A stretch of 64,000 nucleotides of DNA. Origin: Myxococcales bacterium UBA1238. GTDB lineage: Bacteria; Myxococcota_A; Bradymonadia; UBA7976; UBA1532. The DNA lies in the NCBI GenBank assembly GCA_002309015.1, contig DBWM01000010.1, forward strand, positions 62,501 through 126,500, read 5' to 3'. Positions 10,281 to 44,951 of the stretch are shown here, piece by piece. The position numbers and the translations under genes are program-made. Each line of letters opens with the position of its first letter. Within the stretch, counting starts at the first letter, position 1. The notes under the pieces were generated by a model. The model was not told the DNA's origin. It searched no databases and saw only the letters and a program-made list of their open reading frames with translations.

Positions 10281-10389
10281 TCGATCATAAAATCCAAAAA
10301 GCCGCATCTTCCTTTTGATTTGATTCGGCTTTGATTTATACTCGCAAATGAGCTCTTTGAAATTTGAGAGACGACCGCAACGAAGGTCA

Positions 10390-10735
10390 GCGAGCAAAAT
10401 CGATTGGAAGCATGGGCTGCGCGCTTCAGCAGCCCGTTCAAATTCGTTTGAAGACCCACCTCATCTCCATTGCAACCGCTCAAAATCGTTTTGAAGTGCC
10501 GGATCACCTGAAAGCAATCCATTCAAAATCTTTTGAGCGGCGATCCATTGAAAATGGATCCTCCTTAAAATCGTTCCCGCTCGCTGGCTATTGACTGTGC
10601 CGGTGCATCAAATCGATTTGAAGAAGCGGCATTTTGTAGAGCTGGTTCATAAAATCGATTTGAACAGCCAGCTATTGACAAGGCTGGTTCATCAAAATGA
10701 TTTGAACAGCCAGCATCACCAGAAACAGCAGCTTG
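10390..10735. repeat. Phased array (~43 bp period, >=7 copies) of a palindromic motif. Consensus is T(T)CAAAATCGATTTTGAA-like. Perfect copy: TCAAATCGATTTGA. Putative multi-site operator or iteron-like array.
   Basis: Copies centred near 10400, 10445, 10488, 10530, 10614, 10657 and 10700. The last three units are near-identical 43-bp tandem repeats (ctggttcat[c/a]aaatcgatttgaacagccagc). An extra isolated copy, ttcaaattcttttgaa, lies at ~11707-11722, 60 bp upstream of recB. Confidence 0.6.
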
Positions 10736-10848
10736 AACGCCATTTTGAGCGTTTTTTTGGCTTGAAACTTGCGTGTTTAAGTCAATTTAACTCCAAACTC
10801 TGTGAATCACCGCGCGAATCTGCGCATTTTTTGCAAAGGAGCTCCACG

Positions 10849-11631: not shown

Positions 11632-11782
11632 ATTTAAGGTTCAGCCGTTGCGGCCGCCCTCTCAGATTTTAAAACTGAGCGCAGAGTTCAAAGCTCAGGC
11701 GGCCGTTCAAATTCTTTTGAAGCCTTTAATGTCTTTCAGTCAGATGCTCCAAACACCGAACGTTTAAAGAGATGGCCCAACG

Positions 11783-14700
11783 ATGACCGATCGAGAGATG
11801 CAAAATTACAGCGGTCAGGAAGAGATCGTCGATCAAACCACCTTGATCGAGGCGAGCGCGGGCACGGGAAAGACCTATAACATTACGGAGCTCGTGCTTC
11901 GGCTGCTGCTGGAGCGCCATTTTAAACTGGAGAAGATGCTCGTGGTCACCTTTACCAGGGCGGCCACAGCGGAGCTTAAGGAACGCATCGACGCAAGGCT
12001 TCAAAAGAGTCTGATCCTGCTGCAACAGCACAAGCAAGGGATCAATCTGGAAGAGAACAAGGAGTTTCAGCAGCTGCAGGCGAGCATCCAAAAAGGGGAG
12101 CTTCAGATCGATGAGGCGATCACCTGTCTTCAGGATGCGCAGGACGCGCTCGATATGGGATCGATCTCTACCATTCACGGCTTCTGCCAGCGCATCCTGA
12201 CTTCGTTCGGTTTCGAGACCGATATAGAGTTTGAATCCGAGCTGCAAAACAATGTGGACGATCTGATGGACGAGATCATCCACGACTATACGCGCCAAAT
12301 CTATGAGACCGACGATCCCGAATGGTATCTCTTCCTTTCGTCGCTCAACATCTTCGAGCCGAGCGATCCCTATTCGCGTCAAACGCTAAAGGACGCCGTA
12401 AAACAGCTCGTGCGCGATCCTCAGCTGGTTTTGGATCCCAAGCCTTTATCATGGTCGGCCATCAAAGAGCATTTCGACCGGCTGATGGTGCAGAAGGAAG
12501 AGACCCAAAAACAATTGCGCGCCCTCCGCGATCTCTACCTCAGCGATCCTCCGGTTTTTGAAAAGTCAGCGCCCACAGAAGCGCAGAGTCAGTCGTTCAA
12601 AAACCTGCTGATGTGCGATCCGGTCTTCTCACTCGATGCGTTTTTATCGCTCATCACCATGGGACAGGTGATCGATCAGTATTCGGGAGAGACCCTGCCT
12701 TGCTCGCTTTCAAGCCTTCCGGGCTGGTCCGGATTGCCGCCTTTTCGCAAATACACCCGCTTCGCATTTCAGTATGATCGCTGCAAAACCCCAAAGCAGG
12801 TCGATCATTTGCCAAAGATTGTGGAGCTGTTCGAAGATCTGGTCGTTCAGCTCGCGCGAAAGACCGATCCACCGTATTTTCCTGAGCTCCAGGACTGCGC
12901 GATCGCTACGGCCACAAAAGAGGTGTACGACCGGCTGATTTTAAAGAAGCAGCAAAAGGGTGTGATGACCTTCGACGATCTTTTGACGCGCTTGTCTGCC
13001 GCATTGTCGTCCGATCAGGGGCCTGAGCTCTGCCGGATGATCCGCGAGCAATACGACGCCGCGCTCATCGATGAGTTTCAGGACACCGATGACACCCAAT
13101 GGAAAATCTTTAGCCAGATCTTTCAGGGCAAACCCCTCTATTTAATCGGCGATCCCAAGCAGTCGATCTACGCGTTCCGAGGCGCAAACATCCACACGTA
13201 TCTCGCTGCCAAGCAGTCTGCCGGATCAAGACAGTTTACGATGCAGACCAACTGGCGATCAGATAAACCGCTCATCTGTGGCATGAACCAGCTCTTTGCC
13301 AATCCAAAGGCTTTCGGCGCTGAGGGCATCGATTACGTGCAGGTGCAGGCGTCCGAAAAACATTTGGAGAGTGGCTACGCTCAGGAGATCGGGGTTCAGG
13401 AAAAGCCGATTCAGATCCGTTATTTTGATGACGCGATTCAAAACGGATCGAGCGGCGATCCGATCTCGGGATCGGGTCAGCAATTGCCGCAGATCCTCTC
13501 GAAGGTGGTCGCGCAGGACATCCTCAGATTTTTGGAGACCCGGCCTTATTTAAAGTCGGACGATCCGCAAAAGATCGAGCGCGTGCATCCGGGGCATCTG
13601 GCCGTTCTGGTCAGTACCAACAACGAAGCGCTCGAAATGCAAAAAGCTCTCTTTCAGGTCAACATCCCTGCTGTGCTTTCGGGCATGGGATCGGTTTACG
13701 ATTCACAGGCGGCCATCGATTTACTCTATTGGATCGACGCCTGTTTAACGACCAACAACAGCAAAAAGCTCTGCACCTTCGCCTCAACCCCTCTCTGCAA
13801 CCTCTTCGAGGCACGCGATCTCGCGCTTTTAAATCAGCCTGAAGATGTTGAAGACGCGGATCAAATACAGGTGGAAGAGCGCTTTGAAACCCTGCGCAAC
13901 CGCTTGATCGAATGGCGAAAGCTGATCGAATCCCACGGCTTCCTCTTCACCTTCCATCAGATGATCGAGCAAATGGAGCTGCTCGAACGTCTGCTCTCTT
14001 TGACCGACGGTGAGCGCTACGTGACCGATCTCTTTCAGCTGGGCGAGCTCCTGTTCTGCGCCGAGCACGAGCAACATCTCAATCTGGATCAGCTGCGCGA
14101 ACATCTGGCGGCCGAAATCGCCAAAAAAAAGGACGATCTCGAAGGCAAGCCCGACATTCGGCAGCTTGAGAGCGACGATCACGCCGTCCAGATCATGACC
14201 GTCCATAAAAGCAAGGGCCTGCAGTTCCCCTTTGTATGGATTCCCTTTTTACTGAAGGGCGCATCCTTTCAAAAATCGTTCAGCGTCACCGATTTGAAGG
14301 AAGGATCGAAAGAAAAGAAGCTCTGCCTTCACAAATTCGATACCGAGCATGGCCAGGAGGCCGCAGTTAAAGAGCAAACCGATCTCGAGCAGGAGATGAT
14401 GCGCAAGCTCTACGTCGCATTGACGCGCCCGCAGCACCGCGTGACCGTCTATTTGGGCCAGATGAAGTCCGAGCAGTCCGAGCGGGCACCGTTAAAACGC
14501 CTGCTGAACATCCAGCCTCAGGAAAAGCCGTCCAAAAAAACGCCGAAAGACGCAGAAGCATTGGCGAAATGCAAGAGCCTGTTCGATGCGCTGCAGGCGA
14601 TCTCTTCGGAGTTCATCGAGATTTCGGCCTGTCAGCCTCCGATCGAAGGCGCATTCTGGCAGGATCCGTTTTTGGAAGCGCCGGAACTCTGCGCAGCCGA

Positions 14701-15712
14701 GTATTCGCGTCAAAACTGGGACCGAAGGTTTGCTACGAGAAGCTATTCGAGACTCGCAGAAGGCTGCCCTGAATCGCCGGTCGCCCATCCAATCCCCATC
14801 GATGGCCCGCCTCTGATCGATGGCGATGAGTCCAATGCGACAGAGGATCCGGAACTCGATTCAGACATCGAACAAAATGGAGAAGATGAGCCGGATATCG
14901 CGGAAGAAAGCGGCCTCCTTTTCAACGGACTCCCAAGAAACCGGCAGTTCGGCTCCGCAATTCACTGCCTCTTTGAAAACATCGACTTCTGCAACTACGT
15001 CAAACCCGGTTTTTGCGACAGCCCCGAGATGCGCCAGATCTCGCAGCTCTGTTTAAGGCGCGAAGGCCTCGTGCTCTCGGCCGAGGATCACCAGTCGGTG
15101 CGCCACGACGTCAAAACGCTGCTCGAAGCGCCGCTTTTGATCCCCGAGTTTCCGCATCTCTCGCTCTCTCAAATTTCAAACGACCGCCGCCGCTGCGAAT
15201 TTGAATTCGATCTCAGCGTTTGCAAGGGCGCTCTCTGGCGCATGGGCAGGGCTTGCAAGATCGAACGCTTCGCAGACATCATGGCAGCCGATCATTTTTG
15301 GGAAGAAGACTACCTGCCCAAATTAAAAGGTGTGCTCGCCACATGGGATGAGATCGCCGGCTATCTGACAGGCAGCATCGATCTCGTCTTTACATGCCCC
15401 GGCCAGACCATCGATCGCTACGTGATCGTGGATTACAAGACCAACAGCCTTGCAAGCTACCAGCCCAAAGATTTAAGGGCCGCCATGGCCTCTCACCATT
15501 ACTTCCTTCAGGGCTATATTTATATGGTCGCCCTCCACCGCTTCTTAAAGCAACGGCTTTTAACGTACGACTACGATCGGAACATGGTGGGCATCGAAAA
15601 TTTGTTCCTGCGCGGCATGGGCAGGGCAGGCGAGGGTTGCTATTTTTATAAGCCGTCCAAAGCGGTGATCGAGCAGCTCGACGCCCTTTTAGAGGGAGAG
15701 GATGCGGCATGA
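11783..15712 (+). CDS. recB: Exodeoxyribonuclease V beta subunit RecB (UvrD-type SF1 helicase plus C-terminal PD-(D/E)xK nuclease)
   Basis: 1309 aa. Walker A TLIEASAGTGKTYNITE, the SF1 helicase motif series, and the C-terminal nuclease motif IDLVF...VIVDYKTNSL. Confidence 0.88.
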   Translation: MTDREMQNYSGQEEIVDQTTLIEASAGTGKTYNITELVLRLLLERHFKLEKMLVVTFTRAATAELKERIDARLQKSLILLQQHKQGINLEENKEFQQLQASIQKGELQIDEAITCLQDAQDALDMGSISTIHGFCQRILTSFGFETDIEFESELQNNVDDLMDEIIHDYTRQIYETDDPEWYLFLSSLNIFEPSDPYSRQTLKDAVKQLVRDPQLVLDPKPLSWSAIKEHFDRLMVQKEETQKQLRALRDLYLSDPPVFEKSAPTEAQSQSFKNLLMCDPVFSLDAFLSLITMGQVIDQYSGETLPCSLSSLPGWSGLPPFRKYTRFAFQYDRCKTPKQVDHLPKIVELFEDLVVQLARKTDPPYFPELQDCAIATATKEVYDRLILKKQQKGVMTFDDLLTRLSAALSSDQGPELCRMIREQYDAALIDEFQDTDDTQWKIFSQIFQGKPLYLIGDPKQSIYAFRGANIHTYLAAKQSAGSRQFTMQTNWRSDKPLICGMNQLFANPKAFGAEGIDYVQVQASEKHLESGYAQEIGVQEKPIQIRYFDDAIQNGSSGDPISGSGQQLPQILSKVVAQDILRFLETRPYLKSDDPQKIERVHPGHLAVLVSTNNEALEMQKALFQVNIPAVLSGMGSVYDSQAAIDLLYWIDACLTTNNSKKLCTFASTPLCNLFEARDLALLNQPEDVEDADQIQVEERFETLRNRLIEWRKLIESHGFLFTFHQMIEQMELLERLLSLTDGERYVTDLFQLGELLFCAEHEQHLNLDQLREHLAAEIAKKKDDLEGKPDIRQLESDDHAVQIMTVHKSKGLQFPFVWIPFLLKGASFQKSFSVTDLKEGSKEKKLCLHKFDTEHGQEAAVKEQTDLEQEMMRKLYVALTRPQHRVTVYLGQMKSEQSERAPLKRLLNIQPQEKPSKKTPKDAEALAKCKSLFDALQAISSEFIEISACQPPIEGAFWQDPFLEAPELCAAEYSRQNWDRRFATRSYSRLAEGCPESPVAHPIPIDGPPLIDGDESNATEDPELDSDIEQNGEDEPDIAEESGLLFNGLPRNRQFGSAIHCLFENIDFCNYVKPGFCDSPEMRQISQLCLRREGLVLSAEDHQSVRHDVKTLLEAPLLIPEFPHLSLSQISNDRRRCEFEFDLSVCKGALWRMGRACKIERFADIMAADHFWEEDYLPKLKGVLATWDEIAGYLTGSIDLVFTCPGQTIDRYVIVDYKTNSLASYQPKDLRAAMASHHYFLQGYIYMVALHRFLKQRLLTYDYDRNMVGIENLFLRGMGRAGEGCYFYKPSKAVIEQLDALLEGEDAA

Positions 15713-17751
15713 AGCCCTCATTTGGAAATTCACCCGCAAGCCAGGAGCTCGACCGGCGCGCCGAACCCTTTTTAAAGGCCGGCGTCGTTCAGGATGGGCA
15801 TCTCTCGGCGATTAAACTCTTAAGCGATCTCTCCGGCGAGCAGCGCTACGAAACTTTATTGCTTTGCCTGCTCACGCTGGCTGCCCTCGATCGCGGCGAC
15901 GTCTGCTTCGATCTTTTGCAACCCGAGTCTCCGCTTCAGATTGAGTTGAAGAACGGCGTCACGTTTGAAGCGTTAAAAGCCTTTTTGCCCACGCATGCCT
16001 TTAAAGATCGCTCGCCCTTTTTGATGAGCCCCCTGATCGAGCGCTATGGTGAGCGATCACATTCAGATGAACGGCTGACAGCAGGCGAGGGGAGCGGGCC
16101 AAAAACGTTGGGTGCACCTGCATATCACATCGATCGCCCCTTCGTTCTGGATGGCCATCGCCTCTACCGGCAGAGATCGTACATCGAAGAGCGCCAGGTC
16201 TGCGATCGCTTAAACCAGCTGGCCCTTCAGACGCGCGAGACGGGCAGCCGCCTGATCGATGCCACCGCTTTAAACCGGGGACTCGACGCGATCTTCGGCA
16301 AAGCGAGCGATCAACCCGGAAGAAAAGCGGTCTTAGGCAGCTTTGACAGCGCCTTAACCGTCATTACCGGCGGCCCTGGCACCGGCAAGACCTGGACCGT
16401 CCGCAATTTGATCACCCTGCATTACATTCAGCGCGAGCTCGAACGCCTGAAGGATCCGCAGCTGCCCGAACTTTCGGTCGCCCTAGCGGCCCCCACCGGC
16501 AAAGCGGCCATGCGGATGGTCGAATCTCTGCAAAAGGATCTCGATCGCTTCATTGCGGAAACCGTTCCCAGACTTTTGGAGGGCCTGCCCTTAAAACCGG
16601 AAGGTCTTCAATTCTTTTTGGAGCATCTGCAGGCCTCCACACTGCACCGCCTTCTGGGCGTCCGCCGCTTCGATCCCGGATCCTTCGTCCATCACGCCCA
16701 AAACCCCCTCTGCCTCGATCTTCTGGTGGTCGATGAAGCCTCGATGATCGATCTCGCCCTCATGCGATCGCTGCTCCTCGCGGTTTCGGATCGCTCGCGC
16801 CTGATCCTGCTCGGCGATCCCAATCAGCTGGCCTCGGTGGAAGCGGGCAATGTTCTGGGCGATATCGTTTCAACAGAGCTCGATGCCTGCGCGGTCGGCC
16901 GTCAAATCTTCAGACTCACGGTGAACCACCGCGCAAAAGATGCTCCAAAACTCGCCGAATTCTCGGCCTTATGCTGCAACATCGACGCTGAGCAGGATGA
17001 ACAGGCGGCTGTAGAAAAAGTCGTCGGCTGCCTTCAAAACGAAGGTCAGATCCGCCTCTTAAGCTGGCCCTCCGAAACCTGCGCGATCCCCGACTCGATT
17101 CTAAGCGAGATCGTCGAACAATATTCGAGCTACATCGACTGCCTCTGCAAAGGCCCCGATCCCGATGAAAGCGAAGAGGATCATTTAAGCCGCGCCTTCA
17201 AACTGTTTTTAAGGTTCCGCGTCCTCTGCGCCCACCGCGACGGCCCCTTTGGGGTCTCCGGCTTAAACGCCGCCATCCTCTCCAAACTGCGTTTAAGATA
17301 CGGCATCCCCTTCAACCGCGAGCTCATCGGCCGTCCGATCCTCATCCTGCAAAACGATCCCCAAACGGGCCTCTTTAACGGCGACATCGGTCTCTGCGTC
17401 CAGCACGCCCAAAGCTTAAGGGTCGCCTTCCAAAGCCCCAGCCCGTCGCGCCCCTTCATGTGGTTCAGTCCCGCTCAGCTTCCCGATCACCAGACAGCCT
17501 TTGCGATGACGATCCATAAGAGCCAGGGATCCGAATTCGACCACAGCTTCGTCATCCTCCCGCCGAAGAAGAGCCCCATTCTGACGCGGGAACTCGTCTA
17601 CACCGCCGCCACCCGCGCCAAAACGCAATTAACCGTGGTCAGCGACAAAAACATCCTGACCGAAGCCTTAAAACAACGCGTCCTCCGCGCCTCAGGCCTC
17701 TCGGAACGCCTGATGATCTGCAAACAGCAGAAGGGGAGCCTGAACAAATGA
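15709..17751 (+). CDS. recD: Exodeoxyribonuclease V alpha subunit RecD
   Basis: 680 aa. Walker A TVITGGPGTGKTWTV and the C-terminal motif MTIHKSQGSEFDHSFVIL. Its start overlaps the recB stop (ATGA). Confidence 0.88.
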   Translation: MKPSFGNSPASQELDRRAEPFLKAGVVQDGHLSAIKLLSDLSGEQRYETLLLCLLTLAALDRGDVCFDLLQPESPLQIELKNGVTFEALKAFLPTHAFKDRSPFLMSPLIERYGERSHSDERLTAGEGSGPKTLGAPAYHIDRPFVLDGHRLYRQRSYIEERQVCDRLNQLALQTRETGSRLIDATALNRGLDAIFGKASDQPGRKAVLGSFDSALTVITGGPGTGKTWTVRNLITLHYIQRELERLKDPQLPELSVALAAPTGKAAMRMVESLQKDLDRFIAETVPRLLEGLPLKPEGLQFFLEHLQASTLHRLLGVRRFDPGSFVHHAQNPLCLDLLVVDEASMIDLALMRSLLLAVSDRSRLILLGDPNQLASVEAGNVLGDIVSTELDACAVGRQIFRLTVNHRAKDAPKLAEFSALCCNIDAEQDEQAAVEKVVGCLQNEGQIRLLSWPSETCAIPDSILSEIVEQYSSYIDCLCKGPDPDESEEDHLSRAFKLFLRFRVLCAHRDGPFGVSGLNAAILSKLRLRYGIPFNRELIGRPILILQNDPQTGLFNGDIGLCVQHAQSLRVAFQSPSPSRPFMWFSPAQLPDHQTAFAMTIHKSQGSEFDHSFVILPPKKSPILTRELVYTAATRAKTQLTVVSDKNILTEALKQRVLRASGLSERLMICKQQKGSLNK

Positions 17752-19782: not shown

Positions 19783-22700
19783 TTGAAAATGCGGAACTTA
19801 AACTTGACACAGGAGTCAATTTTGAAAGCTAAAATTCAATACTTCTTGCTAACGATTGTTGGAGGGCTGCTGTGGTCAGGTGGAGCCTTTGCCCAGGAGA
19901 AGGTGGGGACACCGGTCGCCGGGCCGCAGGCAGTGGGTGAGGAACCGGCGGTTTCTTTCATGCCTATGGACAAGGCTGAGTTTTATAAGGCCTATAAAAG
20001 CTCTGGGTATAAAGCAGCAGATGATGAAACAACTTTTTCACTCCAAACGCCAGGTTCATGTCCTGCTCAGGTAGGTTATGTGGATTTGATTGTGGGGCGT
20101 ACAGGGGCTTACGGTTCTCACACAGAGGGGGCGTTAACAAAATATGCGCCTCCAGAACAGGAAAAGAAAAGCGCTGTTTACGATGGAATGGCTTTTTTAT
20201 GTACTAAGCAAGATAACAAAACTCGCGGACGCTGGCTGTCAGAAAGCCTGGCGAATTTAGAGTATTACAATGGCTCGTTGGATTTTGCATTTGACGACGA
20301 TTCAGTGAAAAAAGACGGGAATGGGATTGCGGTAGAGTTTGATGTTCGGGCATGTGATTGCAATATAGTAATAACAGATCAAACGTATTGTGCAAGCGGT
20401 TATTATGATTGGTGGGGTAACTTGGTCTGTGAGAGGACTAGGAATTATCGTAACTGGAAGTGTAACCACTGCAAACCCCATGTGCATGTGAAATCATCAT
20501 ATAAGTTAGAGTGTAATGTATTGAAACATTGCTATGAAGTTACCAATGACTCAGGTGAGCGCATTGATACGGTAGCCGTGACTCCTTATATTGATGGTGA
20601 TTTGTATTTTAGAGGTGAATACAGCAATGACTACGCTGCGACTTCTAAAGGATCGCCAAAACTGCTTTGGGAATTTGATGAGGGTGATAATGCTTATAAT
20701 CCAACTACTTATGTAGGTTTGGTTGCATCTAATGATCCGAAAGATGAGCATTTGAATTCGTGGGAGATCAATCAATATCCCAATACTTTAAATAAGCTCA
20801 TGGCTTCTCCCACGAAGGGTTGCGTTGTCCTGGAAGACTCTATTCTGAAAAGGAAAAAAACAAATTATTCCTTGGGCCCGTCTTATGCTTCGGATGCAAC
20901 GTTGGCATCAGATCTCGACCAAAATTTAGTAACAGATGATGGTTATGATGTCACTCTTGCCATCCGTTATGACTTAGGACCTCTGAATGCAGGTGCTTCA
21001 GGTCAAATCTGTTATGAGACCCGCTTTGGTGTAGGTTTGCCTTGCTCTGATGAAGATGGTGATAATTTATGTGCAGAGGATGATAACTGCCCTACTGAAA
21101 ACAACCCCGATCAAACGGATAGCGATGGCGACGGTGTTGGCGACGCCTGCGATAACTGCCCCAATGATTTTAATGTCGATCAGGCGGATGGTGACGAAGA
21201 TGGCATCGGCGACATTTGCGACCCTGTATCTCTGCCCGTTGCGAAGTTTACCCAGGCCACCAATCCTGCGCACATCAATCGGGAGTCAGGCTTTGCGAGC
21301 GTGAACCTCGATGCTTCCGGAAGCTATGCGACGACTCCCGGTGCGACGATTACGGGCTATGAGTGGGATTTCTCTGGTGATTGCACCAACTTTAGAGACG
21401 GAAGCGATGTTACGGTCACATATGATTATACGTTTAACCCAATCCCTGACGTGAATAGCGACAGGGAACGCATCGTTTGTTTGCGCGTGACCGATTCCAA
21501 TCGGCTACAGAATACAACCAAGCACGCGGTGCGATTCAGGGCAAGCGATACGATTCCGCCGTCTGCAGACGCAGGTTCGGGCTATCACATTGTGGTGAAT
21601 TCCACTCAGGGCGTAACCTTTGACGGATCGGCGAGCTATGATCCCCAGCAGCCTGATGACTGCCCAAAGATCTTTGAATGGGATATCAATTATCGCCCAG
21701 CGGCTGGATTTGTGCGCGATAATAATCTTGCTGCTTCAACGCGAAGGTCTTGTGACCCGAATTCTCAAGGTTATCAGGCTGCTGCAAAATTTACGGTCAC
21801 CTGGGATCAATTGGTGAGCATGAATGCTCACTATGTTGGAACCTACGATGTCGTTTTGCATGTGACCGATGGTGAAGGCAATGTCAGCGAAGCGTTTACA
21901 ACTTTGACCGTTCACGAGGCGAAGCCTATGGCGGTGTTGGAGGTGAGCGGGCAAATCTGCGGTGAAAACACTTTGCTGGATGGGCGGAAATCGGATCATC
22001 CGGATCCCAATATCACGATTCAGAAATGGGAGTGGGATCTCGATAACAGCGGCAATTATGTTGAACTGCCGACCCGCGATACTGCGAATGTCGTTTATGA
22101 TCACTTCTCCATTGATCCCGATGAAAAGGTGACCGTAGGTCTCAAGGTGACCGATTCTCAGGGTAAAGAAGCTGAGACGCATGTCTCCTTTAAGGTCACC
22201 GGGAATCACGAGCCTGTGGCTGAAGCCAACGGCGATTATTCTATCATTACCAGCCTCAATTCGGCCGAAGCGTTGAATGAAACGATCACTTTGTCGGCCC
22301 TGAATTCGCATCCGGGTGTGGGTGCAGCGCGCTCTGATGCCGACTGCGGCGACGAGATCGTTTCTGCGGTGTGGACTTACAATGGGCTGGAGCTTACAGG
22401 AACGTCGGTTTCTGCCTCTGGTGAGCCCGAGTGGTTATCGACCGAAGTCACCTGGCAGACCTTAAAGGCTGCGGGCATTGAAGCAGAAGGGGAGTATACC
22501 CTCACGCTGACCGTTACGGATAAGTTCGGACAGACTGCGACCGATACTGCAGTGCTGAACGTGATCGATGCTCAGCCCAAGGCGGTGATTGCGCTTGCAC
22601 AGACCGCCCTTGATTGTGGTGAAACGATTCAGCTGAATGGTCTTCAGAGCCGTCCCGGTGTCCAAAATGATCCAAATTATGAGATCGTTAGCTATCACTG

Positions 22701-26611: not shown

Positions 26612-27211
26612 CTATCTCGAGGGTTGCGGGGAGGCGAGGAAGGCGGTGACGGTGCGATCTTCGATGGAGACGAGTTTGATCCCCGGGAGGGTGAGATCGC
26701 TGGGATGCTCGATCACGAGGCATTCTGCGAAGGGCGTGGTCTGCCAGATCGAGAGGATCCGATCGAGTTTGCGGGAGTGGTAGGGTGGATCGGCGAAGGC
26801 GTAGTCATAGGCGTGGGCGGAGAGGGCGGCGGAGAAGGGGATCGCGTCGCGCTTGAACAACCGGGCCGCCTGGTGTTTACCGGAGGGTCGTGTGCCTTTG
26901 GCGAGCGGTGCGAGTCTGCGGGCCGCGATGTTCGCCTTGAGGGCATGGAGTGCGGGGGGACCATCTTCGACAAAGTCGCAGCAGGCAGCCCCACGTGACA
27001 GCGCCTCGAGTCCCAGGGATCCGGTCCCTGCAAAGAGATCGAGGACTTTTGCATCCGTAAGGGGCGGCCATGGATCGCGCGCATTGCGAAGGGGTGAGTC
27101 GCTTGTGAGGGCTGCAAAGAGCGCTTCACGGAGATCTTCTCTCGATGGGCGGACGGGGCCTCCCGGTGATACGAGGGGCGCTCCACGCCATTTTCCACCT
27201 ACAATTCGCAT
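26612..27211 (-). CDS. rsmD: 16S rRNA (guanine966-N2)-methyltransferase RsmD
   Basis: 199 aa. MRIVGGKWRG..., SAM-binding motif VLDLFAGTGSLGLEALSRGA, DPPY-like motif FADPPY. Confidence 0.8.
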   Translation of the reverse strand: MRIVGGKWRGAPLVSPGGPVRPSREDLREALFAALTSDSPLRNARDPWPPLTDAKVLDLFAGTGSLGLEALSRGAACCDFVEDGPPALHALKANIAARRLAPLAKGTRPSGKHQAARLFKRDAIPFSAALSAHAYDYAFADPPYHSRKLDRILSIWQTTPFAECLVIEHPSDLTLPGIKLVSIEDRTVTAFLASPQPSR

Positions 27212-27402
27212 CGGTCGTCTTTATGCTCCAATGAAGAGGGAAGGAAACTGCGCGAGATGCGCATAAGGGGGACGATCAGGTGAAGATGAATCTCAGCCTG
27301 CATCGACGTGATGCGGCGAGATATGGTTGTTGGACTTGCCATTTCGGAATCTGTTCAATATATTTGCAATATTAAAGATATGATTTCAAGTAATTAATAA
27401 AA

Positions 27403-27882
27403 ATGAAACAAGACATCATTGAAGTGATTAATTTACTAGCAAACGAATCAGATGATTTCTTTGCAAAAGGTGAAGTTGAATCTTCAAAAATCGCTCAAGC
27501 GGAAGAAACTTTAGGAGTCCATTTTTCTAAAGACTTTTGGGAATATACTCAGAAATTTGGATACATAGAAGCTGATGGAATGGAATTATGCGGAGTGGTG
27601 GATTCTCGACATGTATCTACCGTTATCCGAACGCAGTATATGCGTGACAATTTTTCAGATTTCCCGAAGGATTGCTATGTGATTGAGTCCGTTGGAATTG
27701 ACAACGCAGTAATCATGCAGAAATCCGATGGAAAAGTCTATCAATTTTTGCATAATCATAAATTGATGCTTTTTGCAAATTCCTTGAATGAATATCTGCT
27801 TGGCAAAAAAATGAAGCCCGAGACAAACGCAGTGAATATTGGAAGTCACGAGCGAATGATTGATAACCAAGGATATCAGTAG
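27403..27882 (+). CDS. SMI1/KNR4 (SUKH-1) family protein, a putative orphan polymorphic-toxin immunity protein
   Basis: 159 aa, strongly AT-rich (~37% GC) in a ~60% GC background. N-terminal pattern IAQAEETLGVHFSKDFWEYTQKFGYIE matches the SUKH-1 signature 'i..aE..LG..fP.dY..F...yNG'. Confidence 0.55.
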   Translation: MKQDIIEVINLLANESDDFFAKGEVESSKIAQAEETLGVHFSKDFWEYTQKFGYIEADGMELCGVVDSRHVSTVIRTQYMRDNFSDFPKDCYVIESVGIDNAVIMQKSDGKVYQFLHNHKLMLFANSLNEYLLGKKMKPETNAVNIGSHERMIDNQGYQ

Positions 27883-28344
27883 AGGCGAAATTTTTCCACC
27901 CTTATATCATATATAAAGTCATCATCAAGCTCCGCCGCCTTTTGGTTTCTTCCAATGTGGGGCTGCCTTCAGCAAGAAGGCTTTATATGTTCTCCAGTAG
28001 CCACAACATCAGCGCGCAATCCGGCAGATGCCCCCAAGAGGATCGATCATGGACTGCAAGCCTGCCGTATATTCTGTGCGGGATGTATCCCAACGATACA
28101 GGGAAACAGGTTCAGAATCTACAGCTGAATGGATGATCTTCTACATGCGCGTTGTAGATCATGATCGACATCGACGATGATCAGATCCGATGAGCACGCC
28201 AGAGCGCTTCGCTTCGATCGATCCATGATATCACGTGCATGAATTTCATGATCCACACGCACGCCTTTGATCTCCGTATGCGGTGTACCTTAAAGGCGTA
28301 CGTGATGGGGATTGTGGAAGATCGATCCGCCGAATGGCTACAGC

Positions 28345-30159
28345 TTAGGCGTCCCGGTTCTCGGGTTCGGGGGGCTGGATCAGCGCGATGTTCGCCTCGA
28401 TGAGCTGCTGGGGGTTGGCCACCGAGGGGGCACCGGTCATGAGGCAGGACGCAGAGGTCGTCTTGGGGAAGGCGATCACGTCGCGGATGTTGTCGGTTCC
28501 GGTGAGGAGCATCATCAAGCGATCCATACCGATGGCCAGGCCGCCGTGCGGAGGTGTGCCGTAGGTGAGGGCATCGAGGAGGAACCCAAAGCGGGTACGG
28601 GACTCCTCTTCGGTGAGGCCCAGGAGCTTAAAGACGCGCTTCTGCACCGATTGATCGTGGATACGGATCGACCCACCACCGAGTTCATAGCCGTTGAGGA
28701 CGACGTCGTAGGCCTGTGCGAGCACAGATCCAGGGTCACTTTCGAGGCGATCCAGGTCGTCGGGACGGGGTGAGGTGAACGGGTGGTGCATAGCGAACCA
28801 TCGACCGGCTTCCTGATCATATTCGAACATGGGGAAGTCGGTGACCCACAGGAACGCATACTTGCTGTTGTCGATCAGCCCCAGATCGCGACCGAGTTGA
28901 AGACGGAGGGCGCCCAGTGCGGCACAGGTGGTCGTGAAGTTGTCGGCCACAATAAAGGCAACGGAACCCGGTTTGACGCCCAGCTTGGCGGTGAGGGTCG
29001 CATGCTCCGCATCCGAGATGAACTTGCCGAAGGGTGCCTGCCAGCTGCCATCGTCCTTGACCTTCAACCAGGCCATACCCTTGGCGCCATACAGCTTGCA
29101 AAGGCTGGTGAGCTTGTCGAGGCGGCCACGCCCAAAGTCGCCCTTGGAGGCTTCCTCGGGGGAGAGAACGATCGCCTTGATGACGCCTCCATTGTTCGCC
29201 GTATCGTGGAAGACCGAGAACCCGGACGACTTGCCTTCTTCTGTGAGGTCAACAAATTCCAGGCCGAAGCGAACATCGGGTTTGTCGGAGCCGTACCTGT
29301 TCATCGCGTCGTGCCAGGTGATATGCGGGAACTTGGCGGGGATATCTACGCCCTTGGCTTCCTTGAACACCGCACCGAGCATATGCTCGACCACATCCTG
29401 GATGATCTCGGGTGTGGTGAACGACATCTCCATGTCTATCTGGGTGAACTCGGGTTGGCGATCGGCGCGGAGATCTTCGTCGCGGAAGCAGTGACAGATC
29501 TGGAAGTAACGGTCGAAGCCAGACACCATGAGCAGCTGCTTGAACAGCTGGGGGCTTTGTGGGAGGGCGTAGAAGCAGCCGGGGTGGATCCGGCTGGGCA
29601 CCAGGTAATCGCGGGCACCTTCGGGGCTGGTGTTGGCGAGCACGGGGGTCTCGATCTCGAGGAACCCACGTTCACTGAGGGAGCGGCGGACGATCTGGTT
29701 GACCTGGGAGCGGAGGATCAGCTTTTGCTGCAAGGGGGCACGCCGCAGATCCAGGAAGCGATAGCGCAGCTTGAGCTCTTCTGCGGTGTCGATGTCGTCT
29801 CTGATGTGGAAGGGCGGCAACTGTGCGGCATTGAAGATTTGAATCTGTTTGACGAGCACCTCGATCTCGCCCGTCGGCATGTTCGGGTTCCGGTTCTCAC
29901 CCCGGTCCTCCACCACGCCGCGAACCGCGACCACATACTCGTTGCGCACCTGGGATCCGATCCCGAAGGCCTCGGGTTCGGCATTCTGGTCGAACTTGAG
30001 CTGGGTCAGGCCGTAGCGGTCACGCAGTACGACAAAGATGCAGGCGCCCATATCGCGGCGGTTCTGCACCCATCCCATCAACACGACTTCCTGGCCGATG
30101 TGAGCGGCCCGCAGTTCCCCACAGTTGTGGGTCCTCTGTAACTCGCGTAGAAATTCCAT
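28345..30159 (-). CDS. aspS: Aspartate--tRNA ligase (class II)
   Basis: 604 aa. N-terminal OB fold (ELRAAHIGQEVVLMGWVQNRRDMG), class-II motifs FRDEDLRADRQPEFTQIDMEMSF and GGGSIRIHD. Confidence 0.93.
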   Translation of the reverse strand: MEFLRELQRTHNCGELRAAHIGQEVVLMGWVQNRRDMGACIFVVLRDRYGLTQLKFDQNAEPEAFGIGSQVRNEYVVAVRGVVEDRGENRNPNMPTGEIEVLVKQIQIFNAAQLPPFHIRDDIDTAEELKLRYRFLDLRRAPLQQKLILRSQVNQIVRRSLSERGFLEIETPVLANTSPEGARDYLVPSRIHPGCFYALPQSPQLFKQLLMVSGFDRYFQICHCFRDEDLRADRQPEFTQIDMEMSFTTPEIIQDVVEHMLGAVFKEAKGVDIPAKFPHITWHDAMNRYGSDKPDVRFGLEFVDLTEEGKSSGFSVFHDTANNGGVIKAIVLSPEEASKGDFGRGRLDKLTSLCKLYGAKGMAWLKVKDDGSWQAPFGKFISDAEHATLTAKLGVKPGSVAFIVADNFTTTCAALGALRLQLGRDLGLIDNSKYAFLWVTDFPMFEYDQEAGRWFAMHHPFTSPRPDDLDRLESDPGSVLAQAYDVVLNGYELGGGSIRIHDQSVQKRVFKLLGLTEEESRTRFGFLLDALTYGTPPHGGLAIGMDRLMMLLTGTDNIRDVIAFPKTTSASCLMTGAPSVANPQQLIEANIALIQPPEPENRDA

Positions 30160-33970: not shown

Positions 33971-35614
33971 TTACTGAATGGCGCCAAAGAGCATTCCGAG
34001 CAGCACAACCACGACCAGAACGGGGGCAATATAGCGCACCAGAACCCTGAAGAGCGGGAATGGGAACCATTTACAATGCGCCTCAGGCAGTTCTTCCCGC
34101 TGGTCTTTTTTGGTGAAGACGAATCCAACGAACAGGGAAAGCATCAACCCGCCGATGGGCATGAACCAGTTGCTGCAGAGGAAGTCGGCAAAATCGATCC
34201 ATGTTTTGCCCATAATGGTCACGTTTGACATCAGGTTATAACTGAGGGCAGCCGGGATTCCGAGTACAAAAGTCACCGCTGAGATGATGTAAACGGCCTT
34301 CTTACGGGACCATTTGAACTCATCAACAAAGGTGGCCACCACCGCTTCGAGCATCGAAATGGCCGAGGTCAGCGCTGCGAAGATGACGAGTATATAGAAC
34401 GCAGCACATAATAAGATACCTCCTGGCAGCTTCATAAAGATGACGGGCATGGCGGTAAACAGGTTGCCTGTGCCGCCGTCCTTCATAACCAGGTTGTAAG
34501 AAAAGATGGCCGAGAAGATGATAACCGATGCGATAAGTGCAATCAGGGTATCCATAATCACCACTGAATAGGAGGATGAGACCAGGTTATCCTCCTTCTT
34601 CATGTAACTTCCGTAAGTGATTAACACACCCATACCGAGCGATAAGCTGAAGAAAGCCTGACCCATGGCATTCAATACAGTGCTTGCAGTCACCATCTCG
34701 AAGCTTGGCCGGAACAAAAACGAGAGCGCCTTTCCTGCACCATCGAGCATCAACATGCGCCCAAGGAGCACGATCAGCAGCACAAACAGCGCAGGCATCA
34801 GGATCTTGGACCACCGCTCGATCCCTTTTGAGACCCCTCCAATCACAACACCCACGGTCATCGCCAAAAACACGAAGGCCCACAACACCTGCTTCCATGG
34901 GTGCGCGATGAACTCCGAAAATAGCTTTTGCGGATATAGAGTCTTCTTTAATTCCGACAGCTTCGCTTGTCCCTCTTCATTTTGTTGCAGGCGTTTCCAT
35001 TCCTGATCGGTCACTACCTGCTTCAATGTATTGAGTTTGGGATCCGTCAAAGCCTTGCTTAACGACTCAGGCTTCTGTCCAAGTTCAATGATGAGGGCTG
35101 CTTCACCTTCACTGGAATACACAAAGTCGTGCCATAGCTGCTCGCGAACCATCTCTTCGGAGACGGCCTGATCATAATTTGAAAACTCCGAGGTAACCGA
35201 TTTAACCGTATATTCTACCGTCCATCCAGCGATTACGCTGTAATAACTGAGCAGCAAGAACCCTGTTATCACGCATAAAGTGCCCACATGCTTCCATAAA
35301 GAATGCGGCCTGACCGATTCAAATGCACCAATAGGGGTGGTTTGAGTCCGCTTTCCAAGCATCATTTCTGCGATCATGATGGGGAGACCCAGCACCAAAA
35401 CCGCCAGCAAGTAGATCAATACGAAGCCCCCAGCACCCTGCTGATCCCCTGCACCTCCGCCATTGGAATAGGCCAGATACGGAAACTTCCACAGATTGCC
35501 CAAACCAACCGCACTTCCACCCGCCGCCAGTATAAATCCCAGTTTGCTTCCCCAATTGCCGCGCGAAGAAGCTGCGCTGCTACAGGGATCCTTCGATGAG
35601 CTCATTTGCTGCAT
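33971..35614 (-). CDS. Sodium-dependent transporter, neurotransmitter:sodium symporter (NSS/SNF) family
   Basis: 547 aa. N-terminus GFILAAGGSAVGLGNLWKFPYLAYSNGGGA is the NSS signature. Polytopic, with a large extracellular insertion. Confidence 0.88.
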   Translation of the reverse strand: MQQMSSSKDPCSSAASSRGNWGSKLGFILAAGGSAVGLGNLWKFPYLAYSNGGGAGDQQGAGGFVLIYLLAVLVLGLPIMIAEMMLGKRTQTTPIGAFESVRPHSLWKHVGTLCVITGFLLLSYYSVIAGWTVEYTVKSVTSEFSNYDQAVSEEMVREQLWHDFVYSSEGEAALIIELGQKPESLSKALTDPKLNTLKQVVTDQEWKRLQQNEEGQAKLSELKKTLYPQKLFSEFIAHPWKQVLWAFVFLAMTVGVVIGGVSKGIERWSKILMPALFVLLIVLLGRMLMLDGAGKALSFLFRPSFEMVTASTVLNAMGQAFFSLSLGMGVLITYGSYMKKEDNLVSSSYSVVIMDTLIALIASVIIFSAIFSYNLVMKDGGTGNLFTAMPVIFMKLPGGILLCAAFYILVIFAALTSAISMLEAVVATFVDEFKWSRKKAVYIISAVTFVLGIPAALSYNLMSNVTIMGKTWIDFADFLCSNWFMPIGGLMLSLFVGFVFTKKDQREELPEAHCKWFPFPLFRVLVRYIAPVLVVVVLLGMLFGAIQ

Positions 35615-36181
35615 CCTCCAAGCCGCAAAATCGACAACAAAGTACCCTTATAATGCATCCTTCAGCAGAAAGCGAGATTTAAACGGAGGATCATTGCATT
35701 AAACTGCAGATGCTTTTGAATGAGGCTTGAATGCTGCTTACAGGCATCAGGACAAGAGGCCGATTGAACTATCATCCTTGCAGGTTGATCCTGCAACCGT
35801 TGCAAGTGCAACCAAGCATCTTTCAAGGAAACGACTCGAAAAACTCCAGTGCGAAACTGCAAGCTTTACAATCTAAAGTCTGAAAGCGCGCAAGATTGTT
35901 CTATATGCCTCATAGCCTGCATCTTGAATGGCTGCATATGATTACAGCTGGCTTCTGAAGATCCTCTTCTATGGGCTGCTGTCCCCATCTATATATGAGG
36001 TCACATTTAAAAATCAGCTTTAAAGATGAAGGCTTGAACCGATATTGGATGTTGCAGAAAAGCTTTTAAAATGAATTGCGGTTTGGTGGGTATAAAATTT
36101 TTTTAAGCATGGGTTTTTTCTTGGCTTTTTGCAGATCCCAATGTGATAGGATAAGCCGGTTTTTGCGATCTGGGGAGATCA

Positions 36182-39100
36182 ATGTCCAACATCAAGCGAA
36201 TTTTATGGCCCATGCTCCTTTTGGTGGGCGCGTTGGGTTGCGATGACGACGATAACAACGATCCTTTAGATATGGGATCCTCTGATGGGACTGTAGAAGG
36301 GGATTCGGGCCAACAAGGCGGCTGGCATGCCTCGACAGACGGCTCCACAAGCGACGGCTCTTTGGACGACGGCTCTTTGGACGACGGCTCTCAAAGTGAT
36401 GGTTCTCCGGAAGACGGCTCCACAAGCGATGGTTCCCCGGAAGATGGCTCTCAAAGCGATGGTTCCCCGGAAGATGGCTCCACAAGCGATGGCTCCCAAA
36501 GCGATGGTTCCACAAGCGATGGCTCCCCGGAAGACGGCTCGATTCACGTGCCCAGATGCGGCGACGGCATCATCGACGACGGCGATGACTCCCAACCGAA
36601 TCACAGCAGCAAGGATCTTGGGGAAGAATGTGATGACGGCAATCGCATCAATGGCGACGGCTGCAACTATACATGCAAACTGGAACCCGAAGATCCGCTC
36701 ATTTATGTGAAACCTGCTCAGGATAACTGCCAGGGTGCTTTTGATCTGCCTTTCGATCGCACAAAGAAGAATGTGTCGGTCTTATATGGCAACGAAGAAG
36801 GTGAGTCTCACTGGTTTAAGTTTAAACTTGAAGAACCCGCCACCGTCATGATTCACACCACTGCGCCTGAAGTGGTCGATCTGACCGCGCCTTCAGCTTC
36901 TGATGCGGCGGATGCCGGTTCTGTGGATGATTTGCTCTTTTGCTACGGTGATACGCTCTTACAACTCTATTCGGGCGCCTATTGCACCACAGTGGAAGCT
37001 GAAAACGATGACCGCGGGATGACGGGCGACGTTGAAAACAAATGCTCCGCAATTTACAAAAGCCTCAATAAGGGGGTTTGGCATATTAAAGCCTCTGCTC
37101 ACGGAGCGACCACCGATGCTGCGGGCAATCCTCAGAAGAACCTGCTGATGGTTCAAATCATCGATCCTGTGGAAGAGGGCGGTGATTGCAGCGCAGACCG
37201 GCCTTTCCCCATCCCCTGCGCTTTCAACGCTTATTGCGACAAAGCGACCAAACAATGTAAAAACAATAAATGCGGCGATTTCGTGATTGCGGGCGATGAG
37301 CAATGCGATGACGGTTCAGAGCAGGGTATTTTGGATGCAGATACAGGCAGCTATTATGGTTGCCATGGTTGCCGCATCAACCCCATTCCGGAAGGCAAGC
37401 CCTGCAAAGATCTGGATTATTCCTGCGGGGTGACTCCTGATGGAGTGAACCTGGTTTGCGATGCAGCGAAGGATAAATGCATACGAAAAAGCTGCGGCGA
37501 CCGAATGGTTTCTGCAGGGGAACAATGCGACGACGGCAATCAGATTGCGACCGATGGCTGCCATGAATGTCAGTTTACGCCTTATAATGGCACAGAGACG
37601 GGCTCTGCTCATCCATTCCAATTGAATTTGTCGGCAGATGGACATGCGGAAGTCGTTTTTTCGCTCGATTGGCCGAACGAAGAAGACTGGTTTAAGTTCG
37701 AAGTCCCTGAAACCGGTCTGTATACGATTTACACTATGTCTTTAAATGAGAAAGACTGTGCGGGTGATACCGAGCTGTTTCTCTATAATGCAGGCAAAGG
37801 ACAGATCTCTTACAACGATAACGGCGGCAACCACGGTAAATGCTCCGAGATCAAGTCTGTGCTCTTAACGCCCGGCCTGTATTATGTCAGCGTGCGCGAC
37901 TATTTTGGAAAGCTGATCCTCGAAGGCGACTGGCTGGTGATTCAAAAAGACAAGGCCCTGGAAAAGGGAGACAGCTGCTCGACCGACCCCCGCAGTCCTG
38001 CCTGCAATTACAATTTATGGTGCAGCGAAACGACCCATAAATGTGTTGAAAACACGTGCGGTGACTTTCACGTGGCTGGCGATGAAGAATGCGATGACGG
38101 CGCTCAGGATGAAGATCCCGAGGATGGTTGCAACGCCTGCAAGATGACCGGCATCCCTGTTGGCAAGAGTTGCATCGTCAATGGTCCGATTGAATGTGTA
38201 TTCAATGCCTATTGCGGCGAAAGTGGCATCTGCGTTGAACATGGTTGCGGCGATGACCGTTTGGGGCCTCTTGAAGATTGCGATTTCAGCATCAGCGGCA
38301 CTGTCAGATGCAATGAGCAATGTGTGACCGACGATGTGACCGCACGCTTTAATGCGACTGTTCGACCCGATGGCCGTATCGATGCCCTCTATCCGCGCGG
38401 TGGCCACAATGACTTTGAAATGACGCTCGATCAGGATGCCTATGTTACGCTCGATACGGGTGATCCCTCTTGCTCAGCTGATACGGTGATGACCCTGTCG
38501 AAGATCGATCAAGGCCGCATTTTAATTGCAGAAAATGATGATAAACCGGGCAGTACCTGTTCGCGCATCGAGGTCTTTCTGGAAGCAGGGGTGTACCGCA
38601 TTTGGGTGCGTAACTATTCGGAATATCTATCAAATCCGGGCTATGAATTCGTGTATCACGCGAAAACTCTGGCGGCTGCGGGCGCTTCCTGCACGAGCAA
38701 TGACAACTGCCTTTCGGCCGATAACGCTTGTTGCGAATCGGGTTATTACTGCAGGAATCTGGTTTGCAGACAACATACCTGCGGTGACGGTGTGATTTCA
38801 TCTGTTCCCAATGACGAAAGAAAGATCGAGGAATGCGATGACGGTCAGAGTGAAGCACATGATGTTGAGACCGATGGCTGCTATCACTGCAAGCTGAGAC
38901 CCATTCCCGATGATTATCCCTGCGTGGCTGACAGTATTTATTCCTGTGAAGCTGAATCCTATTGCGATGAAGGCGCTGGGAAATGCAAACCCCATGTTTG
39001 TGGCGATGGCATTGTGGGAGGAGTGAGTGAACAATGTGACAATGGGCAGAATACGGCGGACGATGATCTGAGCGATGGCTGTGCGAGCTGTGTCTTCCAG

Positions 39101-43388: not shown

Positions 43389-44933
43389 GTGAAAAAGGCG
43401 TTTTATCTTGCAGGACTTGCGGCTTTGGCTTTGGGCTGCTCGACTCATGAAGATGCGGCAAAGCCTTTAAAATCACATACGCAAGCGATCTATCACGGTT
43501 CGCGCACGCCGACGGTGGTCTCGATGACGGACGGACAACTGCTGGCTCTGGGGTGGCTGCACAGCCTGTCGCGACCTGTCAGCTCCTATTGTTCGGGCAC
43601 CATCATTGCGCCCCGCCTGGTGGCGACTGCAAAGCATTGCTTTGACGAAAACTCCCGCGCGGTGAGCATCGGATTCAGCGTGGGCCAATTGCGCGAGGAA
43701 CCCGTACATACCTTTACGCTCAATACTTTTTTGCTTCACGAAACCCGCGATGTGGCGCTTTTGGTGCTCGCGGAAGATGCGACCGAGGTTGTGCCCGGGC
43801 TTACGCCGATCCCGTTTAACCGAACCGCGATGACGAGGGCCGATGAAGGGCGCATGGTGCAGGCTGCAGGTTATGGCCGGACCGACAACGGCGCTACGGG
43901 TCGATTCTTTGCCGAGGTCAAGCTCACCGGGGTGACGGACGAGATGATCATCGTAGACGGCATGGGGCGTCAGGGCATCTGCAGCGGCGATTCCGGGGGA
44001 CCTGCGCTCCTCATGCAGTCGGGAGAATTGGCGGTTGTGGCTGTCGAGACCGAGGGCAGCAGCACCTGCGTGGGTCAGGACAGCATGACGCGCCTAGATC
44101 AGGTGGCCGAATGGATCGACTCCGTGGATCCCGAAAATGTGATACTGACCGACTGCGAGGCGATCGGTCCCAAAGGCCGTTGCGTGGGCAATGTGGCTTT
44201 ATGGTGCGAAACCACTGGCGTGATGCCCTATCGTTGCGCCGACTGGGGACAAATCTGCGGCTACGACGAGCGAAAGGATCGCTATTACTGCATCGATAAA
44301 CCCAACAACTGCGGCGATGTGCCCGAAGAAGGCCGTTGCAGCGAGACGGGCGTCGAATGGTGCGAAGATGGCGAGGTGATGACCGAAAACTGCGCGGAGA
44401 GCGAGCTGGTCTGCCATTTCGACGAGCAACTGGGCTATTACTGCGCCATGCCTTGCAGCGAAGAAGAATCCGTTTGTGAAGATCTGATTTGGCGCAGCTG
44501 CAAAGAGGGCTTTTGGACTTCGCAGGATTGCGCCGCGAGCGAAAAACTCTGCCTGGCCGACATGGGTTGCGTCACAGAAGAAGAATATGAAGATGCGGCT
44601 CTTGCGGACGCCCTGGTGCCGGATGCGGAGTTGGAGGACGCCGATTCAGAGGACGCCGATTCAGAAGACGCCGAGTTGCTGGATGCAGATTTGGAAGACG
44701 CGGAACCTGTGGAAGATGCTGAGCTTTTGCAGGATGCGGCGAAGCAGGATGCAGCGGTTGTCCCCGATGCGGCGAAACAGGATGCAGCGGTTGTCCCCGA
44801 TGCGTCAACGGATTCGGATTCCGGCGGATCCGATGGATGCAGCGCTTTACCGCAATCTGGCGGCCCTGCATGGCTTTGGGCTGGTTTAGGTCTTTTGGCG
44901 ATCGCTCCAGGAAGGCGTTTGCGAAAAAAATGA
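43389..44933 (+). CDS. Lipoprotein trypsin-like serine protease (S1 family) with C-terminal 6-Cys repeat modules, an acidic repeat region and a MYXO-CTERM-like tail
   Basis: 514 aa. Lipobox LALGCSTHED. Catalytic triad motifs TAKHC / DVALLVL / GICSGDSGGPAL. Four ~40-aa modules (C..G.C.GNVALWCETTG...CADWGQICGYDE..DRYYC). C-terminus GCSALPQSGGPAWLWAGLGLLAIAPGRRLRKK. Confidence 0.8.
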   Translation: MKKAFYLAGLAALALGCSTHEDAAKPLKSHTQAIYHGSRTPTVVSMTDGQLLALGWLHSLSRPVSSYCSGTIIAPRLVATAKHCFDENSRAVSIGFSVGQLREEPVHTFTLNTFLLHETRDVALLVLAEDATEVVPGLTPIPFNRTAMTRADEGRMVQAAGYGRTDNGATGRFFAEVKLTGVTDEMIIVDGMGRQGICSGDSGGPALLMQSGELAVVAVETEGSSTCVGQDSMTRLDQVAEWIDSVDPENVILTDCEAIGPKGRCVGNVALWCETTGVMPYRCADWGQICGYDERKDRYYCIDKPNNCGDVPEEGRCSETGVEWCEDGEVMTENCAESELVCHFDEQLGYYCAMPCSEEESVCEDLIWRSCKEGFWTSQDCAASEKLCLADMGCVTEEEYEDAALADALVPDAELEDADSEDADSEDAELLDADLEDAEPVEDAELLQDAAKQDAAVVPDAAKQDAAVVPDASTDSDSGGSDGCSALPQSGGPAWLWAGLGLLAIAPGRRLRKK

Positions 44934-44951
44934 TGCAGGAGAAGATCTGAA

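Follow-up and report, generated by a model that had tools for sequence, protein, structure and literature searches.

A low-GC islet in the spacer between aspS and rsmD of an uncultured rumen bacterium carries a single SUKH gene, and we put at roughly 0.6 the probability that this is an orphan immunity gene acquired across phyla, probably one directed against an LHH nuclease and presumably active in its present host. A single-gene fragment of ~600 bp was probably copied from a rumen Bacteroidales into the aspS-rsmD spacer of a Myxococcota/Bradymonadia-like bacterium of the cow rumen. In the donors, its place as an immunity gene is in a type VI secretion system (T6SS) effector/immunity region, where in most cases it comes right after a cassette for an LHH (HNH/EndoVII-fold) nuclease. 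What reached the recipient was this gene together with a putative Bacteroidetes-type promoter box but without a toxin, so that it would be an orphan there. Its likeliest role would be acquired defense, an LHH-type DNase that neighboring Bacteroidales inject being bound and inhibited by the SUKH domain.

Composition, borders and host of the islet

The islet was analyzed within a 64-kb window (the whole stretch of DNA under study, 64,000 nt), and the coordinates of its features are collected in Table 1. GC content drops to 0.37-0.39 over 27250-27999, compared with 0.60-0.65 in the flanking rsmD and aspS genes (300-bp windows), and is 0.354 across 27358-27960. The lowest 600-bp value of the entire window (0.35 at 27321; mean 0.553, sd 0.051, z = -4.0) falls here. 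GC3 is 0.35 in the SUKH ORF vs. 0.68 in rsmD and 0.79 in aspS, and the codon usage of the ORF is far from that of the host. An earlier note on this DNA had claimed an AT-rich islet, which is both real and extreme; its genome background of ~60% GC has to be lowered to a window mean of 55%. The note had also described an AT-rich stretch of ~440 bp downstream of the gene (27900..28340), but the AT-rich tract stops near 27960-27985, only the first ~80-100 bp of 27883-28345 being AT-rich and 27985-28345 having 51% GC. The second-lowest GC of the window (0.40) is found at the 5′ end of the gene for a 2158-aa PKD surface protein (19921-21250); no Pfam domain was detected there and GC is low, so that a mosaic or foreign origin of the N-terminal region of this protein is possible. 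GC is also low (0.42) in the intergenic region 35501-36330, upstream of the gene for a 1758-aa DUF4215/PPC protein.

Table 1. Features of the islet and its borders (positions in the window; a dot marks features without strand)
Feature	Position	Strand	Evidence and remarks
rsmD (16S rRNA m2G966 methyltransferase family), left border gene	26612..27211	-	PF03602 93.4 bits; TIGR00095 82.7 bits, below the cut-off of 117.5
Left flank, host-type intergenic, upstream of rsmD, 51% GC	27212..27357	.	No donor similarity
Sigma-70-like promoter candidate TTGCCA, 17 nt, TATATT (10/12 matches)	27336..27364	+	Consensus scan; lies across the host/insert junction
Donor-derived Bacteroidales-like fragment, ~600 bp, 35% GC	27358..27960	+	blastn, alignment, GC; in the aspS-rsmD spacer, antisense to both genes
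TATATTTG, candidate Bacteroidetes -7 promoter box (motif TAnnTTTG), imported along with the gene	27359..27366	+	Conserved in contigs L005/L006 at the same distance to the ATG; overlaps the sigma-70-like -10 hexamer
SUKH_5 immunity-type ORF, 159 aa, domain at about residues 7-133	27403..27882	+	Pfam, AlphaFold2, Foldseek
A7 homopolymer, +2 frameshift vs. donor A5; codons 135-159 out of the ancestral frame	27805..27811	+	DNA alignment with contig L001
Terminator-like hairpin with T-rich tail at the insert's right edge	27965..27981	+	Consensus scan
Right flank, non-coding, 51% GC, GATC-dense	27985..28344	.	No donor similarity, no domain relic, stops in all six frames
aspS (aspartyl-tRNA synthetase), right border gene	28345..30159	-	Pfam tRNA-synt_2 405 bits, GAD and OB domains

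The genes around the islet are ordinary chromosomal genes. The window encodes a sulfatase, an H+-pyrophosphatase, recC, recB-like and recD-like genes, the 2158-aa PKD protein, rsmD, aspS, TPR proteins, an SNF transporter, a DUF4215 protein, three trypsin-like proteases and a Ser/Thr kinase. As the earlier note had described, rsmD (93 bits to PF03602) lies on the opposite strand and the gene for the 2158-aa protein ends at 26259. Pfam scans of the window genes revealed no toxin, secretion-system/T6SS, mobile-element, recombinase or integrase gene, and the 64-kb window contains no tRNA gene. Among the classical features of genomic islands, the islet displays the compositional deviation, and integrase, tRNA and direct-repeat features were not found.

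The statement that no toxin gene is adjacent was borne out: the upstream neighbor is rsmD on the other strand, and no toxin domain was found in the window genes scanned. Searches with the LHH, DUF4280, DUF6985 and other donor neighbors against the 64-kb window (tblastn) returned only noise (E at least 0.19). The earlier note had further considered a displaced toxin/immunity cassette, with degraded remains in 27900-28340. No such remains were detected: comparison of 27100-28400 with the donor contigs (tblastx) yielded nothing outside the SUKH gene (E at least 0.03), the ten longest stretches in a six-frame translation of 27883-28345, a region with stops in all six frames, had no Pfam match, and donor similarity ends near the gene. 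The 2158-aa surface protein was considered as the missing toxin and rejected; its domains are all of PKD/REJ type, and none is a toxin domain. An RNA element in the spacer was likewise rejected, with no Rfam match at E up to 1 and with folding of 27883-28010 not significantly more stable than that of shuffled sequences (z = -1.5).

The non-coding spacer downstream of aspS also holds the densest GATC cluster of the window (28041-28324), with 13 sites in 284 bp (mean 4.2 per 360 bp, 99th percentile 11). The cluster includes the near-palindrome TGTAGATCATGATCGACA at 28153-28170 and similar copies at 28043-28059 and 28237-28257. A replication origin was discarded as its explanation: DnaA boxes are at the expected number (7 vs. 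7.6), and the cumulative GC skew rises steadily without a turn. The cluster could be an operator array or decayed host coding sequence. The window-wide GATC excess (11.7 per kb) is explained by trinucleotide composition (observed/expected 1.10). CTAG is strongly depleted in the window, with 8 sites observed vs. 33 expected from trinucleotides.

Among named organisms, RsmD and AspS have their best matches (52-61% identity) in metagenome-assembled genomes of Bradymonadia, Myxococcales or Myxococcota; a further pointer to the host is the presence of DUF4215 and MopE motifs in proteins of the window. Beyond the same species, the nearest relatives share 64% identity in AspS and 59-67% in RsmD; for AspS in genome contigs identity was at most 56% among the matches listed, and for RsmD in metagenome contigs at most 57%. 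At this locus the SUKH gene was found in one species-level lineage only. The sampled relatives' loci with readable flanks had no SUKH gene and no synteny, which is a weak test, given their distance (RsmD 55-59%, AspS 63% identical), of the refutation that the earlier note had proposed, a segment syntenic in all relatives, and no empty insertion site was found among the contigs of sampled RsmD/AspS relatives. Within the species, the locus was recovered three more times. One 1.4-kb contig (L013) is 100% identical to the window and derives from SRR094926, the cow-rumen data set of Hess et al. (2011); two others (L011 and L012) are 99% identical, carry SNPs of their own and have the same order rsmD-SUKH-aspS and the same junctions.

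The SUKH protein, its tail and its expression signals

The ORF at 27403-27882 passed the Pfam gathering thresholds of SUKH_5 (PF14567; 47.5 bits, E 2e-12, cut-off 27), SUKH_6 (30.5 bits, cut-off 27) and SMI1_KNR4 (PF09346; 27.3 bits, cut-off 25.4), and had no match in NCBIfam. With three SUKH models above threshold, the SUKH/SMI1-KNR4 assignment proposed earlier holds, but its SUKH-1 subfamily label does not, the best model being SUKH_5 and SMI1_KNR4 (SUKH-1) only barely exceeding its cut-off. The AlphaFold2 model of the 159-aa protein has a mean pLDDT of 84, with residues 1-137 predicted confidently. Foldseek retrieved as top PDB matches Lin2918 (2ICG; E 6e-7, TM 0.74) and Bacillus subtilis YobK (2PRV; TM 0.72), which we take to be an immunity protein, followed by BF1740 (3D5P) and yeast Knr4 (TM 0.57-0.62); all are SUKH proteins. 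Sequence identity to these solved structures is only ~18%, and a PDB sequence search gave just a marginal match to 2ICG (E 0.96), so that the structure-based search was needed. Both the Pfam and the AlphaFold2/Foldseek results place the protein in the SUKH superfamily, with the alpha/beta SUKH fold.

The C-terminal end of the protein departs from that of its homologues by a frameshift in a homopolymer. Removal of two A residues from the A7 run restores the tail NEARDKRSEYWKSRAND and its stop, identical to that of homologue P0002, and the tail motif R-x-x-R-x-x-Y/F-W-x-x-R/Q is present in 24 of the 24 aligned homologues. The P0002 tail is predicted, with low confidence, to be a helix; the tail of the window protein consists of 25 unrelated residues with a pLDDT of about 30. 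The lesion is shared by the other assemblies: the A7 run is also found in L011, the frameshifted protein (P0001) is also encoded on L012, and L013 is identical to the window here. The 134 codons of the SUKH domain are intact, with no stop and no further indel, and the Pfam domain does not extend into the frameshifted tail. Loss of the conserved tail may weaken or abolish SUKH function.

TAnnTTTG is the -7 promoter motif of Bacteroidetes, in which a missing Shine-Dalgarno sequence is usual. A match to this motif stands upstream of the SUKH ORF, and no Shine-Dalgarno sequence or ribosome-binding site was found before the ORF. Sigma-70-like promoter candidates are not enriched (2 found vs. 2.5 expected).

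Donor DNA, direction of transfer and gene context

Among the 79 detectable homologues of the SUKH protein, one is 99% identical and belongs to the same species; the rest range from 89% to about 58% identity, and those outside the species are typically 151-153 aa long. At the DNA level, 27400-27915 is 90.3% identical to contigs L001-L004 and 27358-27743 is 90.4% identical to contigs L005-L010, all of them gut-metagenome contigs of about 40% GC. Within the 80%-identity cluster, the members bearing organism names are Paludibacteraceae, and more distant named homologues are Bacteroidales. Donor similarity begins ~45 bp 5′ of the SUKH ATG, fades between 27915 and ~27960 (~35-80 bp past the stop codon) and is absent from the flanks (27212-27357 and 27985-28345).

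Substitutions on the window branch comprise 9 AT-to-GC and 11 GC-to-AT changes, and thus reveal no drift toward GC. The recent horizontal acquisition suggested in the earlier note is corroborated by this lack of AT-to-GC bias, by the GC3 of 0.35 and by the 90% DNA identity to low-GC contigs. The same DNA identity to 40%-GC contigs, the named Bacteroidales homologues, the un-ameliorated GC3, the shared TAnnTTTG box and the lack of a Shine-Dalgarno sequence make a transfer from Bacteroidales to the Myxococcota-like host, and its relative recency, appear well supported on comparative grounds. No DNA similar to the islet was found in plasmid and phage collections, and the repeats flanking the insert are at chance level (the best is an 11-mer with one mismatch), with no significant direct or inverted repeat. 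With no integrase, no significant flanking repeat and no plasmid or phage match found, the most parsimonious explanation would be that a short piece of foreign DNA entered the spacer by illegitimate recombination.

In the donors, the gene has company. An LHH nuclease gene (PF14411, 79.8 bits) is located directly upstream of the SUKH gene in L005-L010 and in L179. In these six contigs, which encode the 81%-identical homologue P0003, and in L179 (P0006), the upstream protein is 169-227 aa long and carries the LHH domain at its end, in the L005 protein as residues 112-187 (C-terminal ~80 residues); in L006 a weak match to the PAAR-like DUF4280 precedes the LHH gene. The 61-kb contig L178 has the order tssC, vgrG, Tle1-like, DUF2931, DUF4280, SUKH_5, Colicin-DNase/WHH, DUF6985, SUKH_5, SUKH_5, and this region is a variable effector/immunity region of a T6SS locus. 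The gene for the 89%-identical P0002 follows DUF6985 genes and has no nuclease nearby. Toxin-less copies therefore occur in the donors too, and the lack of an LHH neighbor for P0002 makes it uncertain which toxin is the partner of this particular SUKH variant. The position expected of an immunity gene, downstream of a toxin gene and co-oriented with it, is not seen in the window and is seen for the closest homologues (L005-L010 and L179).

Linkage between SUKH and LHH genes has been described (PMC3113570), and orphan SUKH proteins of Bacteroidales neutralize a WHH nuclease effector by tight binding, for which one SUKH domain suffices (PMC12247911). The earlier reading of an orphan immunity-type SUKH gene gains support from donor homologues that follow LHH genes in T6SS effector/immunity regions. 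The 90% DNA identity to gut contigs, the Paludibacteraceae relatives and the LHH/T6SS context of the donors are new relative to that note.

Two further observations concern the donor genes themselves. The donor SUKH_5 family is a mosaic (alignment of P0002-P0077), its C-terminal half being almost invariant and its N-terminal half occurring in a few block-wise variants; P0003 and P0002 swap relationship at codon 113, and three SUKH_5 paralogues are present within one T6SS region (L178 7708-11062). This pattern points to probable recombination among donor immunity genes. Proteins with DUF6985 recur beside SUKH_5 genes and nuclease cassettes (L001, L005, L006, L178), and may represent another uncharacterized immunity or effector-associated family.

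Strain variation, alternative explanations and known systems

The SUKH gene has a dN/dS of about 0.2 relative to the donors, and on the window branch codons 1-113 accumulated 12.5 synonymous vs. 8.5 nonsynonymous changes. Between the window and L011, the number of SNPs per kb is 15 in rsmD, 21 in the left spacer, 17 in the right spacer, 13 in the frameshifted tail and 1.2 in aspS, and 0 in the SUKH domain codons (402 bp). The local rate predicts about 5-6 SNPs for the domain (Poisson P about 0.004; ~0.03 when each cluster of SNPs is scored as one event). Their absence fits constraint on the SUKH domain. Since the synonymous sites are invariant too, it could equally well reflect a recent sweep or an insert that arrived later. 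In the right spacer, five strain SNPs (window vs. L011/L012) lie within 31 bp (28069-28099), a cluster that hints at either one multi-nucleotide event or a small patch of recombination.

Could the fragment be functionless passenger DNA, taken up by chance (e.g., from lysed Bacteroidales) and starting to decay, with the A-tract frameshift as its first lesion? We regard this as possible, if on balance unlikely. A tail conserved in every aligned homologue is lost, GC3 remains un-ameliorated, no Shine-Dalgarno sequence precedes the ORF, the promoter match is at chance level, the gene is confined to one species-level lineage, and the recombinase or array context known from acquired-defense clusters is missing, all of which would be expected of such DNA. 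Chance decay accords poorly, however, with an intact 134-codon domain in which no SNP has accumulated, and the part that has been lost lies outside the Pfam domain.

Other explanations have much less in their favor. Linkage of SUKH genes to a variety of toxins has been described (PMC3113570) and the genome was inspected over 64 kb only, so a cognate toxin might lie in another part of it, after either a separate acquisition or a rearrangement, in which case the gene would not be an orphan. We consider this improbable: the fragment ends 45 bp upstream of the ATG, which implies that no toxin came along, and neither a toxin domain (LHH, WHH or other) nor a secretion-system gene was found within the 64 kb. 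Recruitment of the protein to a non-immunity role, as a protein-binding adaptor or regulator like Smi1/Knr4 in yeast, is slightly more improbable still. Versatile protein binding is typical of the SUKH fold, and Knr4 is among the structural matches, but the best of these are the bacterial single-domain SUKH proteins Lin2918 and YobK, and 90% DNA identity to T6SS-linked immunity genes leaves little time for a change of function. The sharp compositional break in metagenome-derived sequence is a typical signature of chimeras, here a join of Bacteroidales reads into a high-GC contig during assembly or binning. Such an artifact is hardly credible, because L011, L012 and L013, assembled from different samples, share both junctions.

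The recipient may be a Bradymonadia-like rumen predator that captured, from its Bacteroidales prey or neighbors, an antidote to a contact-dependent LHH nuclease, a doubtful proposal that, if true, would amount to cross-phylum acquired interbacterial defense by bare single-gene insertion, without mobile elements or recombinase arrays. As a variant of this proposal, the A7 tract may be a slippery or phase-variable site; a -1 ribosomal or a +1 transcriptional slip at A7 would then restore the conserved tail exactly (GKK-NEARDKRSEYWKSRAND).

An orphan SUKH immunity gene acquired across phyla, the reading that we prefer, has its nearest parallel in the acquired interbacterial defense systems (AID/rAID) of Bacteroidales, which comprise orphan SUKH immunity genes (Ross et al., 2019, bioRxiv 10.1101/471110; Azhieh et al., 2025, PMC12247911). 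As in those systems, a SUKH immunity homologue, here with no cognate T6SS effector found in the 64 kb, related to an HNH-superfamily nuclease effector, has been acquired horizontally, and the donors of the islet are Bacteroidales with T6SS effector/immunity regions. In contrast to AID/rAID, with their immunity-gene arrays on a mobile element or beside a recombinase, the islet is a single gene between housekeeping genes, with no array, integrative conjugative element or recombinase, and its recipient belongs to another phylum. The window protein has a single SUKH_5 domain rather than the dual-SUKH architecture of I2, its likely partner is LHH rather than WHH, and its tail is frameshifted.

The SUKH proteins of polymorphic toxin systems (Zhang, Iyer and Aravind, 2011, PMC3113570; e.g., YobK, 2PRV) share fold and superfamily with the window protein, and the donor homologues lie directly 3′ of LHH cassettes, as described in that work; the window gene differs in having no adjacent toxin, and its product in being only ~18% identical to the solved proteins. 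Orphan immunity genes at T6SS/CDI loci within one species (Vibrio cholerae, PMC8189183) are likewise immunity genes without an effector. Those orphans usually stay at the effector locus after displacement of the cassette, whereas the islet has no such locus, no relic and no nearby secretion system. Measured against these systems, the islet is a clear but fairly ordinary case of horizontally acquired orphan immunity, a phenomenon already known; its only unusual traits are a recipient from another phylum and the insertion of a bare single gene.

Orphan immunity genes shape survival in contact-dependent warfare among gut Bacteroidales, and the locus described here would extend this idea to another phylum in the rumen. 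It also indicates that a bare 600-bp fragment can deliver an immunity gene without any mobile element. The LHH domain of the donor contigs and the window SUKH protein, with or without the frameshifted tail, make a testable toxin/antidote pair.

Elsewhere in the window, RecC, RecB-like and RecD-like genes are encoded at 5668-17751, with two unrelated genes, for a Phos_pyr_kin-family (PfkB-type) kinase and a DUF6261 protein, separating recC from recB. The ORF for a 971-aa TPR protein, read from its first TTG, overlaps the start of aspS by 35 bp on the opposite strand (30125-30159), and its true start is probably further downstream. Three consecutive genes on one strand (43389-47474) encode trypsin-like serine proteases of 514, 365 and 396 aa, a trio that fits a proteolytic or predatory lifestyle.
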